64,000 nucleotides of DNA from Patescibacteria group bacterium (GCA_018816445.1 JAHIVO010000061.1:305-64304); one strand, 5' to 3'. Numbered from the stretch's first letter, positions 6,995 through 52,569 are shown. Notes: generated from the letters alone by a model not told the origin. Program-made: numbers and translations.

Positions 6995-7261
6995 ATGCCA
7001 AATTACGATGGTCAAGGTCCCGGATGGGGCGGCGGACCAGGCGCTGGCTGGGGATATGGTCCGTGCACCTGCCCGCCATTGGCTTCGCCAACAGGCGAAG
7101 GCAGGCGGGGCGCTGGTCGCGGTTGGGGACGCGGCTGGAGACGTAGAATTAAATGGAGTAAAGAGGATGAGATGAAAATGCTGGAAGATGAAGAAGCGGC
7201 TATAACAGAAGAGCTGGCTGAAATCCAAAAAGCCAAGCAGGAACTTAAAGCTGAACAATAA
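6995..7261 (+). CDS. Glycine-rich DUF5320-like protein with C-terminal coiled coil
   Basis: MPNYDGQGPGWGGGPGAGWGYGPC... followed by EDEMKMLEDEEAAITEELAEIQKAKQELKAEQ. Paralog at 21486-21806. The family assignment is from memory of the MPrgDGTGPmG...coiled-coil pattern. Confidence 0.55.
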   Translation: MPNYDGQGPGWGGGPGAGWGYGPCTCPPLASPTGEGRRGAGRGWGRGWRRRIKWSKEDEMKMLEDEEAAITEELAEIQKAKQELKAEQ

Positions 7262-11134: not shown

Positions 11135-11446
11135 CCCCGAGCCAATTGCCGAAAGTGACAACTTCTGTGGATAAGTCATAAAAGCCTTTAAATATCGGGT
11201 GAAAGTTGTACCCACTAGTTTTCTGTTTCGCAACTAAAATCTCCCCACCCAAGTAGGATTCGAATTTCTCATTCTTTTTAGCCTAAAATTCTTCCTTGTC
11301 CATCAGCAGTTTGAAGAGGTTTATAAGGTTTTCAGCCATGAGCCAGGCTTCGTCATCCGATATTTCTTCCCCATATTGCTTTTTGTAGATTTCCTTGAAT
11401 TTATCTATGTGATGTTGTTCAAGAGGCATTGATATCACCCCCTCAC
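11135..11446. repeat. Direct repeat copy 1 (~312 bp, ~90% identical to 15443-15756), encodes a 48-aa ORF
   Basis: Hand alignment of the two copies. They bracket the DGR-containing modules. Confidence 0.8.
11283..11429 (-). CDS. Conserved 48-aa protein (MPLEQHHIDKFKEIYKKQYGEEISDDEAWLMAENLINLFKLLMDKEEF)
   Basis: Strong RBS GAGGGGGTGATATCA before the ATG. The two copies differ at 12 nt but only 1 aa, which indicates purifying selection. Below the 60-aa track cutoff. Confidence 0.6.
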   Translation of the reverse strand: MPLEQHHIDKFKEIYKKQYGEEISDDEAWLMAENLINLFKLLMDKEEF

Positions 11447-12370: not shown

Positions 12371-12451
12371 TATAAATAACCAAAAATACATCTCATTAAA
12401 TTGGGGGATGTCCTTTCTTCGTTGTACAACTTATTTTTAATTAAGTTGTTA

Positions 12452-12494
12452 CTTCCCGCAAATAGGTTCTAACGTCCTCTACGACCCCGAGCCA
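12452..12494. repeat. Module-boundary motif copy M1 (CTTCCCGCAAA-GGTTCTAACGTCCTCTACGACCCCGAGCCA)
   Basis: Same ~45-nt motif also at 15410-15451, 17093-17138 and 28241-28310. A variant is at 11101-11146. Confidence 0.6.
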
Positions 12495-12639: not shown

Positions 12640-12830
12640 CCATTGTTACTTTCCGCACTTTGTAATCCAAGAGCTAAAATCACGTTACCTCTTCATTTAA
12701 GAGCGGCTCCTTGCTGTAATCTCCGGACAGAGATTTCCAGAGAGCTGTTCTTAAATAACCGAAAGGTATCGCCTGGAAACCACAGTGGTTGACAGGCAGA
12801 TGTTTTTCAAAAACCAAGGAGGATGACGCC

Positions 12831-13448
12831 ATGGCAAAGACCATGACCCCATCTATGACTGATGGCCAGATTGACAAGGTTGTCGAAAACATCACAGCAG
12901 GGTTTCGCAAGAGACTTCGCGATCACAGGGATGAACTATCTTCAGACACAGTTCAAACCGTCCTCGGCCAGAAGGATTTTATTTCTGCCCTGTTCGCCGA
13001 GTTTCGCCAGCGCGTGGAAGCGGTCAGCAACATGATCGTTCGTAAGGTCAAGGTGGATCGCACCAGAACCTCGCAAGAGGCGCTGGACGTGACAGGACGT
13101 AAGCAGTATACCGACGACGATGTTGTGAAGTCCATGCCGAACGGCAAGGGCGATGAAACCGAGGTTATTTTCTTCAAGGTAGGTCGTACAATAAGTGACG
13201 ACGATCTGGAGAAAGAATATGAACTGCGCGGCCTGGTACCGGCTGATCCGTATTCACTCTGTGCCGTAAATGGAAATGATCCGGCGTTTGCCGATGAACA
13301 TCCCAATGGCACCCACTGGAAAGATTCCAACGGAAAATGGTGTTTCGCCTCCTTCGGCCGGTGGATCGACGAGCGCGGGGTGAGCGTCGACCGCGACGGT
13401 CGTGACTGGGCTGACTGCTGTTGGTTTGCCGGTGTCCGCAAGAATTAG
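12831..13448 (+). CDS. DGR target (variable) protein; C-terminal ligand-binding-type domain carries the VR
   Basis: AGGAGG RBS 8 nt before ATG 12831. C-terminus ...FGRWIDERGVSVDRDGRDWADCCWFAGVRKN is encoded by the VR. Confidence 0.75.
   Translation: MAKTMTPSMTDGQIDKVVENITAGFRKRLRDHRDELSSDTVQTVLGQKDFISALFAEFRQRVEAVSNMIVRKVKVDRTRTSQEALDVTGRKQYTDDDVVKSMPNGKGDETEVIFFKVGRTISDDDLEKEYELRGLVPADPYSLCAVNGNDPAFADEHPNGTHWKDSNGKWCFASFGRWIDERGVSVDRDGRDWADCCWFAGVRKN
13340..13441 (+). repeat. DGR variable repeat (VR)
   Basis: 102-nt homolog of TR 13778-13879. The 20 differences are all at TR adenines; every other position is identical. Confidence 0.85.
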
Positions 13449-13498
13449 GCACTTGGTCGCTTGAACGCATGGCACTTGATTGGTGCCCTTGGATACTA

Positions 13499-13528
13499 CA
13501 CTCTGCATGAGCTTGCTCATGCAGAGTG
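13499..13528 (+). terminator. Perfect 13-bp hairpin (CACTCTGCATGAG-CTTG-CTCATGCAGAGTG) + T-run, 58 nt downstream of VR
   Basis: Read directly. Candidate target-gene terminator and/or the DGR VR-flanking hairpin used in homing. Confidence 0.55.
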
Positions 13529-13777
13529 ATTTTTATCTGACAACGTGATATAATTTTATTTGGAGAGTAAGCGATTCAGCTTGCGGGCACGCCTGCAGGC
13601 GGCTGAAATCCGGATCATTGGGAAAGCCGGAATGCCTGTGGTTATGGCGACAGGCAGCGCGCTCCTTGATTCAATACCAACAAAGATACTTGGTGCAATA
13701 TGCTGGCGGAGCTTTTCTCCCGAATAAAATACAGCCCGGAGAGAATTCAACGGGCAGTGGTACGGAAGGCATGTTGC

Positions 13778-13879
13778 ATAATTCGCCAACTTCAACCGGT
13801 GGAACGACGAGCGCAAGGTGAACGTCAACCGCAACGATAATGACTGGAATGACAACTGTTGGTTTGCCGGTGTCCGCAA
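13778..13879 (+). repeat. DGR template repeat (TR), noncoding, rich in AAC/AAT codons in the VR frame
   Basis: In the VR frame TR reads FNRWNDERKVNVNRNDNDWNDNCWFAGVRN. 20 of its 30 adenines are substituted in VR. Confidence 0.85.
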
Positions 13880-13901
13880 CTATCTTTTTTGGAGCAATCC
13901 G

Positions 13902-14309
13902 CTATTTTGGCGGATTGTTTTTCATCAGTTGTTTTCGCCACCCGCCCAGCATTTTTCCAACCTCTACCAATGGAGGCGTGAGTTGGCTATATTTTCTGGT
14001 ATCCAGAACTTTCATTTCCCAGGCGATCTGCAGGAAAAATTTTAGGGCATCAAGCTTGGTTGAAGCACGCTCCACTACAGAGAGCTTCTTTTCCCTGGGT
14101 GAGTATCCGGCCAGAAGAATTAGTTCCAGAGCATCATAAAACAGCAGGTCAATCTTAGACCCGAGCGTAAAGCGGGACAGCCGCGGCAGGTTCGTCAAAT
14201 TCGCGTGCCATAACCTATACCCTGCCGCCAGTTTCTGTATAATGGGAATATCGACCGACAAATCCCTGGGGGGGGTAATCTTATTAATATGAAAACGCTT
14301 TTGACTCAT
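13902..14309 (-). CDS. avd: Avd-like accessory variability determinant (four-helix-bundle protein)
   Basis: LLAGYSPREKK (compare NIAEGYGR), FFLQIAWEMKVL and LVEVGKMLGGWRKQL resemble Avd / 23S-rRNA-IVS proteins. On the strand opposite to TR and RT, overlapping the RT start by 21 nt. Confidence 0.6.
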   Translation of the reverse strand: MSQKRFHINKITPPRDLSVDIPIIQKLAAGYRLWHANLTNLPRLSRFTLGSKIDLLFYDALELILLAGYSPREKKLSVVERASTKLDALKFFLQIAWEMKVLDTRKYSQLTPPLVEVGKMLGGWRKQLMKNNPPK

Positions 14310-15284
14310 GGGTTTAAGGATATTGTATCGATAGACAATCTATTGTCAGCCTGGCGTGAGTTTGTCCCGGGCAAAGCCGGGAAAAAGGATGTCAGGGAAT
14401 TTTACCGCCATCTGGCTGATAATATTATATCACTCCACGAGGAGCTTGAAAACGACACTTACCGACATGGCGGGTATATTCACTTCAGGATCTCCGATCC
14501 CAAGCCTAGGGATATTCACAAGGCAACCATCCGGGACAGGCTGGTGCACCATGCCATCTATCGCGTACTCTACCCCTTTTTAAGTGATACATTCATCGCC
14601 GATTCATATTCCTGCCAGTTGGGAAAGGGAACGCATCGGGCTATCAGAAGATTCCGGACTTTCGCCGGTCAGGTAAGCAGAAACAATACCCAAACCTGCT
14701 GGATATTAAAATGCGATATCAGGAAATTCTTTGCCAGCATTGACCATGCTATATTGATGAATATGCTAAGTGAGTATATTACTGACCAAAGAATTAATAC
14801 TTTATTGCGCGAGGTTATCCAGAGTTTCTGCTGGCAACCGGGCAAAGGTTTGCCGCTTGGCAATCTGACATCCCAGTTGTTCGTTAATGTGTATATGAAT
14901 GAGTTTGACCAATTCATGAAACATACATTAAAAGTCAAGTATTATCTGCGTTATGCTGATGATTTTGTTGTAATGTCTGATAACAGATCGTGGTTAAAAG
15001 GACTCATACCGATTATCAGTAATTTTCTGACGGTCAAACTCAAACTCACGCTTCATCCGAGCAAGGTATTTATTAAAACACTGGCTTCAGGAGTTGATTT
15101 TCTGGGCTGGGTGCATTTTCCGTATCATCAGGTACTCCGCACTTCCTCCAAAAGGCGCATGTTAAACAGGATTACTGAAAACCCGGAAACATCTACTATG
15201 CAGTCATATTTGGGTCTACTACAACATGGCAATGCATACAAGCTGGCAGAGCAGGTGATTAATCAGACCTATCTATGGAAGTAA
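14289..15284 (+). CDS. DGR reverse transcriptase
   Basis: RT motifs 1-7, YADDFVV (YxDD). The DGR-specific LGNLTSQLFVNVY ([I/L]GxxxSQ) replaces the retroviral QGxxxSP. N-terminal NLLSAWREF...VHHAIYRVL is typical of DGR RTs. Confidence 0.85.
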   Translation: MKTLLTHGFKDIVSIDNLLSAWREFVPGKAGKKDVREFYRHLADNIISLHEELENDTYRHGGYIHFRISDPKPRDIHKATIRDRLVHHAIYRVLYPFLSDTFIADSYSCQLGKGTHRAIRRFRTFAGQVSRNNTQTCWILKCDIRKFFASIDHAILMNMLSEYITDQRINTLLREVIQSFCWQPGKGLPLGNLTSQLFVNVYMNEFDQFMKHTLKVKYYLRYADDFVVMSDNRSWLKGLIPIISNFLTVKLKLTLHPSKVFIKTLASGVDFLGWVHFPYHQVLRTSSKRRMLNRITENPETSTMQSYLGLLQHGNAYKLAEQVINQTYLWK

Positions 15285-15409
15285 CCTTATCCACATTTAT
15301 TGTTGGAATACGCAATTGCAAACAAAGTGATTGAAGTATACAGTAAGATTGGGGCACGAGAATATTTCTTAATTTATTTAAAACAGTTTTCAGGAGAATT
15401 AAGTTGTCG

Positions 15410-15451
15410 CTTCTCGCAAAAAAGTTCTAACGTCCTCTACGACCCCGAGCC
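15410..15451. repeat. Module-boundary motif copy M2
   Basis: CTTCTCGCAAAAAGTTCTAACGTCCTCTACGACCCCGAGCCA, immediately followed by direct-repeat copy 2. Confidence 0.6.
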
Positions 15452-15756
15452 AATTGCCTAGAACGACAACTTACTGTGGATAAGTCATATTAACCTTTAA
15501 ATATCGGGTGAAAGTTGTACCCAAGAGTTTTCTATTTACGCAATTAAAATCTCCCCACCCAGGTAGGATTCGAATTTCTCTATCTTTTTAGTCTAAAATT
15601 CTTCCTTATCCATCAGCAGTTTGAAAAGATTTATCAAGTTATTGGCCATGAGCCAGGCTTCGTCGTCCGATATTTCTTCTCCATATTGTTTTTTGTAGAT
15701 TTCCTTAAATTTATCTATGTGATGTTGTTCAAGAGGCATTGGTTATCACCCCCTTT
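15443..15756. repeat. Direct repeat copy 2 (~312 bp)
   Basis: Aligned to 11135-11446 by hand. Confidence 0.8.
15593..15739 (-). CDS. Conserved 48-aa protein, copy 2 (differs at one residue, E33N)
   Basis: Same RBS and frame as copy 1. 10 of the 12 nucleotide differences are synonymous. Confidence 0.6.
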   Translation of the reverse strand: MPLEQHHIDKFKEIYKKQYGEEISDDEAWLMANNLINLFKLLMDKEEF

Positions 15757-15823: not shown

Positions 15824-16153
15824 TTAAATATTTTTAAGCTCTTCAAAATTAACCTCTGGAATTTCAGTGTTTAGTTTTCGTTTGCTGTTCTTTTGTTTTT
15901 CAACAATTGCAAACATCTGATTTACTTCAGGAGATATGTTTTGATAGCTCACTTTTTTAAAGTTCCAGAATTTGTTATGCTGGTCTTTAAGTTGTAGTAA
16001 TTCATGCGCGGCCGAGCGAGAAATAAAAGAGATATTTGAGAAATCCAAAACTACACGACGGTCTGTAGTTTCCTGAATCCGCTGTTTTATAATGCTAATT
16101 ACATCCCTCGATGAGAGCATTGGGGATATATCTTTTAATGCAATATTATTCAT
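15824..16153 (-). CDS. STAS-like / DUF4325-type anti-sigma-factor-antagonist-like protein
   Basis: RVVLDFSNISFISRSAAHELL has a STAS/DUF4325-like signature. Lies downstream of the GHKL gene in the same operon. Confidence 0.45.
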   Translation of the reverse strand: MNNIALKDISPMLSSRDVISIIKQRIQETTDRRVVLDFSNISFISRSAAHELLQLKDQHNKFWNFKKVSYQNISPEVNQMFAIVEKQKNSKRKLNTEIPEVNFEELKNI

Positions 16154-16194
16154 ATATAATCATTATATCACAGTTATATTGTGGATATCCAATT

Positions 16195-17076
16195 TTACTC
16201 TGTATAGGGTGTTATGTCAATAGGACCTTTGGGATAAGGTATTTGATAGGAGATAATAACTCCTTGCCAGTAGAAATTTGGGAGCTGTACAATTACTTGT
16301 TTACCTTGTGAACCTAAAAAGACGCTATTACCAGTGAGAAGTAAAAATTGGCCACCTAGTGCTTTCCTAACTACCAACTGTGATGTACTTAATCCGTAAC
16401 CTCTTCCTTCCATTTTTTTGGTTGACTGTCCTTGAAATGCACGTCGAATTGCTTCATCGTCACCAACTTCTTGTTTCTGAACATCAAAGTATCTTCCAGC
16501 AATGCCCCTGCCGGTGTCAATTATACAAATATCTAATAACTTCTTCTTCGGATAATGTTGTGCAAATATCCAACCATAATTCTTTTGGCTATGTTCGAAT
16601 ATGTTGCCGACTAATTCGCTAATAGGGTACAAGATTGCATTGCTTGCACCCGCTACATTACCTGTTAGTTTTTCGATAATTCTATAAAAATTACTTTCCA
16701 GACCTTGTCTACTTGTTTCGTCTGCTTTCTTAAGAAAACCAATTGGAATTGTATAGCTTAATAAGCTCAATTGATTGGCATTCTCTATTCCATTAGGAAA
16801 AGAAATATCTCTTAAATATCTCTTTACTTGTTCTGATTGAGGTTGTTGATAATTGCTCTGATATTCTCTAACGTGGGCACACACAGTAAGTGTTAATAAA
16901 GGGTGCATCCAAGTACAGGACGATAATCGAAAATTAACTGGATTTTGTTTTATCCCTTTAAAAGTATCATATAGAGCTTTGATTTGATCTTTAAGGTCGT
17001 CAGATTTAGGATTGTTGACCCTTACTTCCTTTAGCATTAATATTTTATTATAGATTATTTGTATATAGTATACCAT
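16195..17076 (-). CDS. GHKL-family ATPase (histidine-kinase-like ATP-binding domain) with ~140-aa N-terminal extension
   Basis: N-box ELVGNIFEHS, G1 box IDTGRGI, G2 box GRGYGLS. Confidence 0.55.
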   Translation of the reverse strand: MVYYIQIIYNKILMLKEVRVNNPKSDDLKDQIKALYDTFKGIKQNPVNFRLSSCTWMHPLLTLTVCAHVREYQSNYQQPQSEQVKRYLRDISFPNGIENANQLSLLSYTIPIGFLKKADETSRQGLESNFYRIIEKLTGNVAGASNAILYPISELVGNIFEHSQKNYGWIFAQHYPKKKLLDICIIDTGRGIAGRYFDVQKQEVGDDEAIRRAFQGQSTKKMEGRGYGLSTSQLVVRKALGGQFLLLTGNSVFLGSQGKQVIVQLPNFYWQGVIISYQIPYPKGPIDITPYTE

Positions 17077-51240: not shown

Positions 51241-51258
51241 TAGCAGGGGGGGGATTCT
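51241..51258. repeat. 18-bp duplicate of the tRNA-Met 3' end (GTAGCAGGGGGGGGATTC)
   Basis: Identical to 51450-51467 inside tRNA-Met. About 190 bp of GC-rich, hairpin-rich sequence lies between the copies. Confidence 0.6.
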
Positions 51259-51446: not shown

Positions 51447-51523
51447 TGGTAGCAGGGGGGGGATTCGAACCCCCGGCCTAAGGCTTATGAGTCCTTCGCT
51501 CTAACCAACTGAGCTACCCTGCC
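51447..51523 (-). tRNA. Elongator tRNA-Met or tRNA-Ile2 (anticodon CAT), CCA encoded
   Basis: Folded by hand: acceptor GGCAGGG/CCCTGCT (G1-U72), D-arm GCTC-AGTTGGTTA-GAGC, anticodon loop CTCATAA, T-arm GGGGG-TTCGAAT-CCCCC. Confidence 0.75.
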
Positions 51524-52052: not shown

Positions 52053-52127
52053 TGGTTGCCGGGGGGGGATTCGAACCCCCGACCTCGGGATTATGAGCCC
52101 CGCGAGCTGCCACTGCTCTACCCGGCG
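52053..52127 (-). tRNA. Initiator tRNA-fMet (CAT), CCA encoded
   Basis: C1xA72 mismatch, three consecutive G-C pairs in the anticodon stem (CGGGG/TCCCG), anticodon loop CTCATAA, T-arm GGGGG-TTCGAAT-CCCCC. Confidence 0.75.
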
Positions 52128-52387: not shown

Positions 52388-52569
52388 TGCCGAAGGTGGG
52401 AGTCGAACCCACACGAGGTTGCCCTCATGCGATTTTGAGTCGCACGCGCCCGCCTGCCTCTGCCGAGAGGGAGAGTCGAACTCCCATGAGGTTGCCCCCG
52501 CAGGATTTTGAGTCCTGTGCGTCTACCAGTTCCGCCATCTCGGCAAAGGCAGGCGGGCGCCACTTCGGC
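52388..52569 (-). tRNA. Outer tRNA-Leu (CAA)-like gene with the D-arm replaced by a 13-bp clamp helix that carries the inner tRNA-Leu
   Basis: Acceptor GCCGAAG (rc 52563-69)/CTTCGGC (rc 52389-95). Clamp GCGCCCGCCTGCC/GGCAGGCGGGCGC. Anticodon stem TGCGA/TCGCA with loop CTCAAAA, T-arm GTGGG-TTCGACT-CCCAC. Confidence 0.4.
52461..52544 (-). tRNA. tRNA-Leu (CAA), inner gene of a nested pair
   Basis: Acceptor GCCGAGA/TCTCGGC, D-arm GCGGAACTGGTAGACGC, anticodon stem CAGGA/TCCTG with loop CTCAAAA, 15-nt variable arm, T-arm GGGAG-TTCGACT-CTCCC. 84 nt. Confidence 0.75.

Follow-up and report, generated by a model that had tools for sequence, protein, structure and literature searches.

Reverse transcriptases of the DGR type carry an [I/L/V]GxxxSQ motif in domain 4 and a YxDD catalytic site. 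The control of DGR activity is largely unknown, and unchecked mutation of a target protein that already works should carry a cost. The closest described relatives of the element analyzed here are found among the DGRs of CPR bacteria. In the parts of Wu et al. (2018, PMC5758913) on which we draw, the arrangement TR-(avd)-RT is termed "architecture B3" and accounts for 90% of a CPR DGR set that was itself drawn from Paul et al. 2017, and the pI of Avd proteins is given as 9.5 +/- 0.7. For a Patescibacteria-restricted group of these elements, DGR clade 2, the portion of Roux et al. (2021) that is used here describes activity that is significantly lower than average.

In this study we provide a detailed description of a DGR cassette contained in a stretch of 64,000 nucleotides from a Patescibacteria group bacterium (GCA_018816445.1, JAHIVO010000061.1:305-64304). 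This whole stretch is called the window, and coordinates are counted from its first letter unless another contig is named. As far as the B3 elements are covered by the parts of Wu et al. (2018, PMC5758913) cited here, the cassette shares with them its gene order, strands, lineage, adenine-specific TR/VR mismatches and a target protein that has no recognizable domain. We regard the cassette as an ordinary, active CPR DGR of architecture B3. In addition, we describe a simple repeat that lies in the leader of avd at the same place in most related loci, and we propose that this repeat acts as a switch of the avd reading frame.

Results

Composition and activity of the cassette

The cassette is composed of a target gene with its VR, followed by TR (+), avd (-) and RT (+), and contains no other accessory gene (Table 1). 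The RT protein matches RVT_1 at 82 bits. For the target gene, the longest ORF has its start at TTG 12789 and the VR is located at the 3' end of the ORF, with 7 nt separating the VR end from the stop codon. At their 3' ends, VR and TR share an identical sequence as far as positions 13441 and 13879, respectively, and are divergent beyond. Pfam and NCBIfam searches with the target protein gave no match, and an Rfam scan of 12700-15400 at E<=1 gave none either. A region of ~220 nt that extends from the candidate TR promoter to the start of TR/VR homology (13555-13781) is likewise free of Rfam matches and might make up a structured 5' portion of the DGR RNA; a VR-to-TR spacing of ~330-500 nt is found in related loci too. 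The hairpin located 3' of the target gene may be the inverted repeat that is known to occur after VR/IMH in some DGRs.

Table 1. Positions of the features that make up the DGR cassette, in window coordinates
Feature	Position	Strand	Description
DGR target gene	12831..13448	+	205 aa according to gene callers; VR at 3' end
VR	13344..13441	+	98 nt, 83% identity with TR; 17 of 17 mismatches at TR adenines
Hairpin of 13 bp, then T-run	13499..13528	+	terminator-like, 3' of target gene
TGaTATAAT, extended -10 match	13546..13554	+	candidate TR RNA promoter, by reading of the sequence
TR	13782..13879	+	from TR/VR comparison
Hairpin GGAGCAATCCGCTA / TGGCGGATTGTTTT into T-run	13891..13921	+	covers avd stop and last codons
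avd	13902..14309	-	135 aa; ON frame in the window
G8 tract	14268..14275		C8 in avd sense, Pro-Pro; proposed frame switch
TAATCT, -10-like hexamer	14276..14281	+	abuts G tract, 7 nt 5' of RT ATG
avd/RT coding overlap, head-to-head	14289..14309		21 nt; avd MSQKRFH / RT MKTLLTH
DGR reverse transcriptase	14289..15284	+	331 aa; LGNLTSQ at residue 190, YADD at residue 222
CTGACA-16-TACAAT	14322..14349	-	promoter-like, in RT codons 12-21, 12 nt 5' of avd ATG

Comparison of sister assemblies provides a view of VR diversification. When the window is aligned with a sister assembly that encodes an identical RT protein (L082), 12 of the 15 differences over ~6 kb fall within the VR, where they span 13357-13416. 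The VR of another assembly (L083) is yet another variant, and the flanks are nearly identical between sister assemblies. Judged by these differences, the DGR has recently been active in the window's species.

The first-pass annotation had called the minus-strand ORF Avd-like on the basis of two motifs, and the ORF does extend over 135 aa with both LLAGYSPREKK and EVGKMLGGW present. The profile family named in that annotation (PF05635) gives no match to the product at E<=0.01; the family that does match is Pfam bAvd (PF22296), with 46 bits against a gathering cut-off of 40. The NCBIfam equivalog DivGenRetAVD (NF033474) is matched with an E of 8.9e-20 and 71 bits, for which the curated cut-off is 80. 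In an AlphaFold model (pLDDT 85.6) the protein is predicted to form a four-helix bundle of four long helices. The best PDB fold match of this model is the Bordetella phage Avd 4dwl (target TM 0.90, rmsd 1.5 A), which bears out the four-helix-bundle fold that had been expected of an Avd, and the next matches are DGR ribonucleoprotein structures that include 8ub7. A PDB sequence search with the Avd profile yielded no match, with the likeness instead found by the fold search. The protein is strongly basic (pI = 10.18), and its residues 1-14 are predicted to be disordered, by which the leader should tolerate a change in length.

The surroundings of the cassette have several features of their own. 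The cassette is bracketed by direct repeats of ~91% identity (11135-11431 versus 15443-15741, and 12439-12494 versus 15397-15452), which include a small ORF twice, as 51 aa at 11283-11438 (-) and as 48 aa at 15593-15739 (-). The right-hand repeat block brings together sequences that are separated by 1 kb on the left, a pattern suggestive of an earlier duplication or insertion in this region around the cassette. Directly 3' of the cassette, 15824-17076 (-) encodes a protein of 109 aa that is weakly similar to STAS / STAS-like (DUF4325) beside a 293-aa HATPase_c protein, and the two look like a partner-switching or anti-sigma-type pair. Farther away, ARAGORN reports two overlapping tRNA-Leu(CAA) genes at 52388-52463 and 52460-52545 (-), which probably represent a single gene that was called two times, or else a tandem pair.

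The inverted layout is the norm in related loci

The first-pass annotation considered the orientation of avd unusual and raised the possibility that an inversion had disabled the gene. To place the layout in context, we scanned relatives with one genome per species, which gave 80 loci with an RT that is 45-70% identical to that of the window, all of them located in Patescibacteria/CPR-type genome bins. A profile search of six-frame ORFs detected avd on the strand opposite RT and directly abutting it in 76 of these 80 loci, and three of the four exceptions have RT at a contig edge. A TR/VR pair with adenine-specific mismatches accompanies this arrangement in 61 loci that extend far enough upstream, and the distance from TR end to avd stop ranges from -20 to +71 nt. 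The orientation is therefore standard for this lineage. Furthermore, since B3 has been published for CPR bacteria, an inverted avd is already known and carries no weight on its own.

Across relatives, the residues of the Avd domain are conserved and synonymous sites vary freely; on this pattern avd is judged to be under purifying selection. A one-off inversion that moved avd to the wrong strand and thereby disabled the gene would have only the orientation to speak for it, and this same orientation is shared by nearly all relatives and constitutes the published CPR norm. In addition, the ORF is intact, its conservation is at the protein level and the VR has recently diversified. We consider the probability of a disabling inversion to be negligible.

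The avd and RT genes start within each other

The positions of avd relative to its neighbors are as first described, with avd ending 23 nt past the TR 3' end and its start overlapping RT over the initial 21 nt of the latter. The overlap is in antisense codon register, such that the avd ATG complements the CAT codon of RT His7 and the RT ATG complements the CAT codon of avd His7. The existence of this overlap hinges on start-codon choice, as some gene callers took TTG 14261 instead, which gives a product of 119 aa and no overlap. An alignment of Avd homologues contains a conserved leader, M-x-Q-x-x-F-H ... P-P-P, before the domain. Read on the opposite strand, the codon of the conserved leader His gives the RT start codon and that of the leader Met gives a conserved RT His, so that conservation of MxQxxFH is confounded with that of the antisense RT N-terminus. 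On balance, the evidence favors ATG 14309 as the probable avd start.

There is no intergenic DNA between the two genes, and thus the start signals of avd and RT would be located inside each other's coding sequence. An earlier claim of unusual transcriptional organization is upheld to this extent; it does not hold with regard to the layout, which is not unusual. The 14 most distant loci, in which RT is ~45-49% identical to that of the window, have no repeat at this junction. In 12 of these 14 the avd and RT starts are arranged back to back, either as CAT-0..3 nt-ATG or as a shared CATG.

A simple repeat occupies the avd leader

When all loci were aligned on the RT ATG, a plus-strand G run became apparent in the stretch that separates this ATG from the Avd domain. 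In the avd sense this run is a poly-C, which encodes the PPP motif of the leader. The G8 of the window lies between the overlapping avd ATG and the Avd domain. A simple repeat is present at the identical spot in 59 of 73 scored loci. Most of these repeats are G7-G14, and the other types are (GA)8-10, (CT)10, (TTGG)10, (TTCG)9, (TGGC)6-8 and (CTGG)10. In 819 kb of related DNA, G/C runs of at least 8 occur 47 times at the avd/RT junction versus 5 times scored elsewhere, and four of these five are also at the junction, in loci that have no scored avd. Within the 64-kb window, the G8 tract is the only G/C run of at least 8 outside of tRNA-Met genes and a nearby tRNA-3'-end-like stretch. Of the 52 Pro codons in the tract, 45 are CCC, whereas at other conserved Pro columns all four codons occur. 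This bias points to selection on the repeat itself and not on the amino acids that it encodes.

Two other roles for the tract were considered and set aside. A function as the RT Shine-Dalgarno sequence is ruled out by a distance to the RT ATG that varies from 7 to 57 nt, and a G-quadruplex is unlikely because (TTCG)n, (GA)n or (CT)n take the place of the tract in some species. A metagenome pattern search with the tract flanks of the window's species returned 0 matches.

The window has three other G8 runs (51246-51253, 51455-51462 and 52061-52068). Two of them are in the T-arm/acceptor 3' ends of tRNA-Met genes at 51447-51523 and 52053-52127 (-). The run at 51246 is in a tRNA-3'-end-like stretch for which there is no tRNA call, and which could be a remnant or an attachment-site-like fragment. 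A different repeat is present in two distant relatives that have no avd repeat. These contain (GGTT)11 or (GGAT)11 (L067 7086-7129, L079 ~7084-7127), an 11-unit tetranucleotide repeat located ~55-70 nt 3' of the RT stop codon. In L067 the repeat occupies intergenic DNA, with a promoter-like AT-rich stretch and the next ORF (at 7204) just 3' of it, and the L067/L079 repeat may be another repeat-controlled promoter.

In many loci the upstream ATG and the Avd domain are in different frames across the repeat

Reading frames across the repeat fall into three groups. An ATG located 5' of the repeat shares the frame of the Avd domain in 19 repeat-bearing loci, the window included (ON), only an in-frame GTG or TTG is available in 5 loci, and in 35 loci there is a displacement of one or two bases (OFF). 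All 35 OFF loci have an open ATG 5' of the repeat in another frame. The Avd domain exhibits no decay when out of frame, with scores of 138 +/- 15 bits in ON loci versus 141 +/- 12 bits in OFF loci. Eight OFF loci have no canonical in-frame start anywhere from the repeat to profile position 22. Just past the repeat, Pro11 is conserved in 81% of loci and is encoded by all four codons, and residues that are conserved at the protein level start 2-4 codons past the tract. The presence of conserved residues this close to the repeat argues that translation starts at or before it.

Taken as a sequence pattern, an intact ORF on either side, a break at the repeat alone and frames that are near a random 1:2 ratio is a phase-variable signature. 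This near-random 1:2 ratio is equally expected if the upstream ATG is irrelevant. In out-of-frame populations (L088-L097, L098-L101, L113-L121) the automated avd calls are 81 or 95 aa, or are missing. Gene finders likely mis-call or truncate some two thirds of these avd genes, and as a consequence DGR surveys may under-count Avd in CPR genomes.

Tract length differs among nearly identical contigs

Contigs that encode exactly the RT protein of the window are present in four assemblies. Their tracts, read as assembly consensus in which short-read homopolymer lengths can be wrong, are G8 (the window's contig), G8, G9 and G10. The G8 tract keeps ATG 14309 in frame, and the G9 and G10 tracts do not. 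Between the window and one of these contigs (L084), the tract indel is the sole difference over 1858 aligned nt. Similar variation is present in a second species, whose tracts are G9, for which Avd is full-length at 135 aa, G10 (three contigs) and G11; these contigs have 0-1 further differences in ~2 kb. When the G9, G10 and G11 alleles are translated, the otherwise intact ORF moves in and out of frame.

In seven of nine within-species contig sets the tract length is invariant (C11 n=10, C9 n=4, C9 n=5, G10 n=6, G9 n=9, G9 n=3 and G7 n=5), with three of the seven having been retrieved via an identical truncated Avd call and so being biased against frame changes. These invariant sets indicate that the consensus tract length is often stable.

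Several contigs have irregular ends in this region. L061 begins with a G26 run at the avd/RT junction (1-26) that is artefact-like, L048 ends 51 nt 5' of its RT match, and L034 and L066 end ~100 nt past their tracts. Such contig breaks at the junction may result from tract heterogeneity or from poly-G sequencing artefacts.

Candidate transcription signals

Promoters and terminators were assigned as consensus matches in a phylum whose own signals are poorly characterized, and it is from these matches that we infer their sites of action. The segment at 13891-13921 has a folding energy of -21.5 kcal/mol and a z of -4.6, and the median z is -2.9 over 72 loci. A GC-containing hairpin of at least 6 bp is found at the avd 3' end in 59 of 70 loci, and a T-run follows the hairpin on the plus strand in 48 of the 70 and on the minus strand in 0. 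The hairpin of the window looks like an intrinsic terminator of a short TR RNA that is located inside the avd 3' end. A terminator-like hairpin at this place would also explain the fixed AAA-AAC codons at the Avd C-terminus. Given a plus-strand hairpin and T-run at the TR/avd boundary in most loci, co-transcription of TR and RT through antisense avd need not be assumed.

Downstream of the G tract, the pattern TAnnnT occurs at -13..-8 in 13 of 43 repeat-bearing loci versus a mean of 1.3 per position. This suggests that the TAATCT hexamer of the window is a candidate promoter for a leaderless RT mRNA, and there is a possibility that the tract also affects the spacing of this promoter. On the other strand, the match of CTGACA-16-TACAAT to consensus makes it a candidate avd promoter. 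Conservation of a minus-strand promoter within RT is inseparable from RT coding constraint, and TAnnnT peaks on both strands. We also searched for a conserved antisense RNA inside avd that could be an equivalent of the BPP-1 spacer. This candidate was rejected, as synonymous sites of the avd body vary freely and RNAalifold on a codon-anchored alignment detected no consensus structure on either strand.

Discussion

A proposed frame switch and its alternatives

In the mechanism that we propose, avd translation would start at ATG 14309, inside RT codon 7, and the ribosome would cross a disordered leader containing C8 before it reaches the four-helix-bundle Avd domain. The C8 would be a hypermutable repeat in which one base gained or lost puts the Avd domain out of frame with the start codon. 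In this way avd, and with it mutagenic retrohoming, would switch heritably and reversibly between ON (G8) and OFF (G9, G10). The cassette would be expressed as three compact transcription units. These would be a short TR RNA that ends at the terminator within the avd 3' end, avd that is initiated inside the RT 5' codons, and RT that is initiated just past the G tract. From the sequence comparisons we infer that a frame change would abolish Avd and that switching would be frequent and reversible in populations.

That the window contains an ordinary active B3 DGR with a functional, phase-variable avd, gated ON and OFF by the tract, is in our view fairly likely. The broader proposal is that the avd-leader repeat is a conserved, heritable and reversible ON/OFF switch of mutagenesis across a large Patescibacteria DGR clade, one with at least 7,978 RT homologues at E<=1e-60, and on this the evidence appears evenly poised. 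The low activity of clade 2 would fit the presence of many elements that are OFF, which is consistent with the proposal but not specific to it, and is no proof.

The alternatives differ in whether the tract is translated at all. If it is non-coding, avd would start at TTG 14261 as a 119-aa protein with no true RT overlap, and the tract would be part of a shared 5' control region, and its length would tune transcription of RT and/or avd through promoter spacing. The 119-aa form was the gene callers' choice in three assemblies, the TAnnnT that follows the G run in 13 of 43 loci could make the tract an RT promoter spacer, and the frame of the upstream ATG looks random. However, a start just 3' of the tract is not conserved, with TTG present in 14 of 73 loci at the commonest position. 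The eight OFF loci without a canonical in-frame start before profile position 22 also speak against this reading, as do the protein-level conserved residues from 2-4 codons past the tract. Moreover, an Avd of the P0079 species that began at its first canonical start in frame would lack helix 1. A non-coding tract is therefore unlikely, although a role in spacing is not exclusive of the frame switch, as the reading frame of avd and the tuning of RT could both depend on a single tract.

In a second alternative, the tract is translated and the frame is restored by RNA polymerase or the ribosome. Ribosomes readily shift +1 at proline CCC-C sites, and RNA polymerase tends to slip on long homopolymers. 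Polymerase slippage or a +1 shift at CCC-C could rescue the OFF frame, such that every tract length would yield some Avd and the tract would set Avd dosage in place of an ON/OFF choice, which would account for OFF alleles that are fixed over 9-10 contigs in two species with an undecayed Avd domain. On the other hand, the di- and tetranucleotide repeats found at the same place are classic substrates for slippage of DNA and not of RNA polymerase or the ribosome, and length differences are seen directly at the DNA level. We regard such rescue as decidedly unlikely. It is highly improbable that avd is always in frame and that the OFF alleles result from sequencing or assembly error. Homopolymers are error-prone, the G26 run of L061 does have the character of an artefact, and the contigs L048, L034 and L066 end near the junction. 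Nevertheless, an out-of-frame tract is carried by 35 of 59 species representatives, which is far beyond any plausible error rate, independent assemblies concur on the same length (G10 n=3, C11 n=10, G9 n=9), and tetranucleotide repeats give the same frame pattern. The repeat-based avd frame switch remains the reading that we consider probable, with a confidence that lies between even and fairly good.

If the frame switch does exist, then a contingency locus would control hypermutation, which would amount to a stochastic heritable switch in bacteria with minimal genomes. A lineage could fix a useful VR variant and later reopen diversification. Such a switch could also help explain the below-average metagenome activity of the Patescibacteria DGR clade.

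Comparison with known systems

We found no prior report of an avd repeat frame switch, of the start overlap or of a TR terminator in avd. The parts of Wu et al. (2018, PMC5758913) that were available make no mention of a start overlap, an avd repeat, out-of-frame avd or a TR terminator in avd, and the overlap, avd repeat, out-of-frame alleles and TR terminator are likewise unmentioned in the available portions of Paul and Eren 2022 and Roux 2021. A search of the literature on DGRs together with phase variation or simple repeats, with Paul et al. 2017 outside of its scope, found nothing relevant.

The element of Bordetella phage BPP-1 (mtd-avd-TR-brt) has in common with the window's cassette the RT motifs [I/L]GxxxSQ and YxDD, adenine mutagenesis, a basic four-helix-bundle Avd and a target gene that carries the VR at its 3' end. 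The two elements differ in organization, as the BPP-1 avd is 5' of TR and on the same strand. In BPP-1 a ~140-nt spacer RNA that extends from TR to brt is needed for priming, whereas the TR-RT interval of the window is an antisense avd with no conserved RNA structure and a terminator-like hairpin ~10-40 nt past TR. To our knowledge, no repeat-based switch has been described for BPP-1.

Repeat-based switching is well represented outside of DGRs. For example, coliphages T2/T4 have contingency loci in which hypermutable repeats serve as bet-hedging, and these are unrelated to DGRs in the part of that report used here (bioRxiv 10.1101/2025.10.21.683753). The contingency loci of Neisseria, Haemophilus and Campylobacter include poly-G tracts in 5' coding regions and the promoter spacers of porA/opc, and a further example is the TA repeats between the divergent genes hifA/hifB. 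The avd locus differs from these pathogen loci in that its hosts are free-living or episymbiotic CPR bacteria, and in that the gene proposed to be switched, as read from sequence alone, is a mutagenesis accessory factor and not a surface structure. Nevertheless, avd shares with contingency loci a G/C homopolymer of 7-14 nt or a di-/tetranucleotide repeat near the 5' end of the ORF, frame-shifting length changes with an intact downstream ORF, length polymorphism in near-identical strains, and a position between divergent genes such as that of hifA/hifB.
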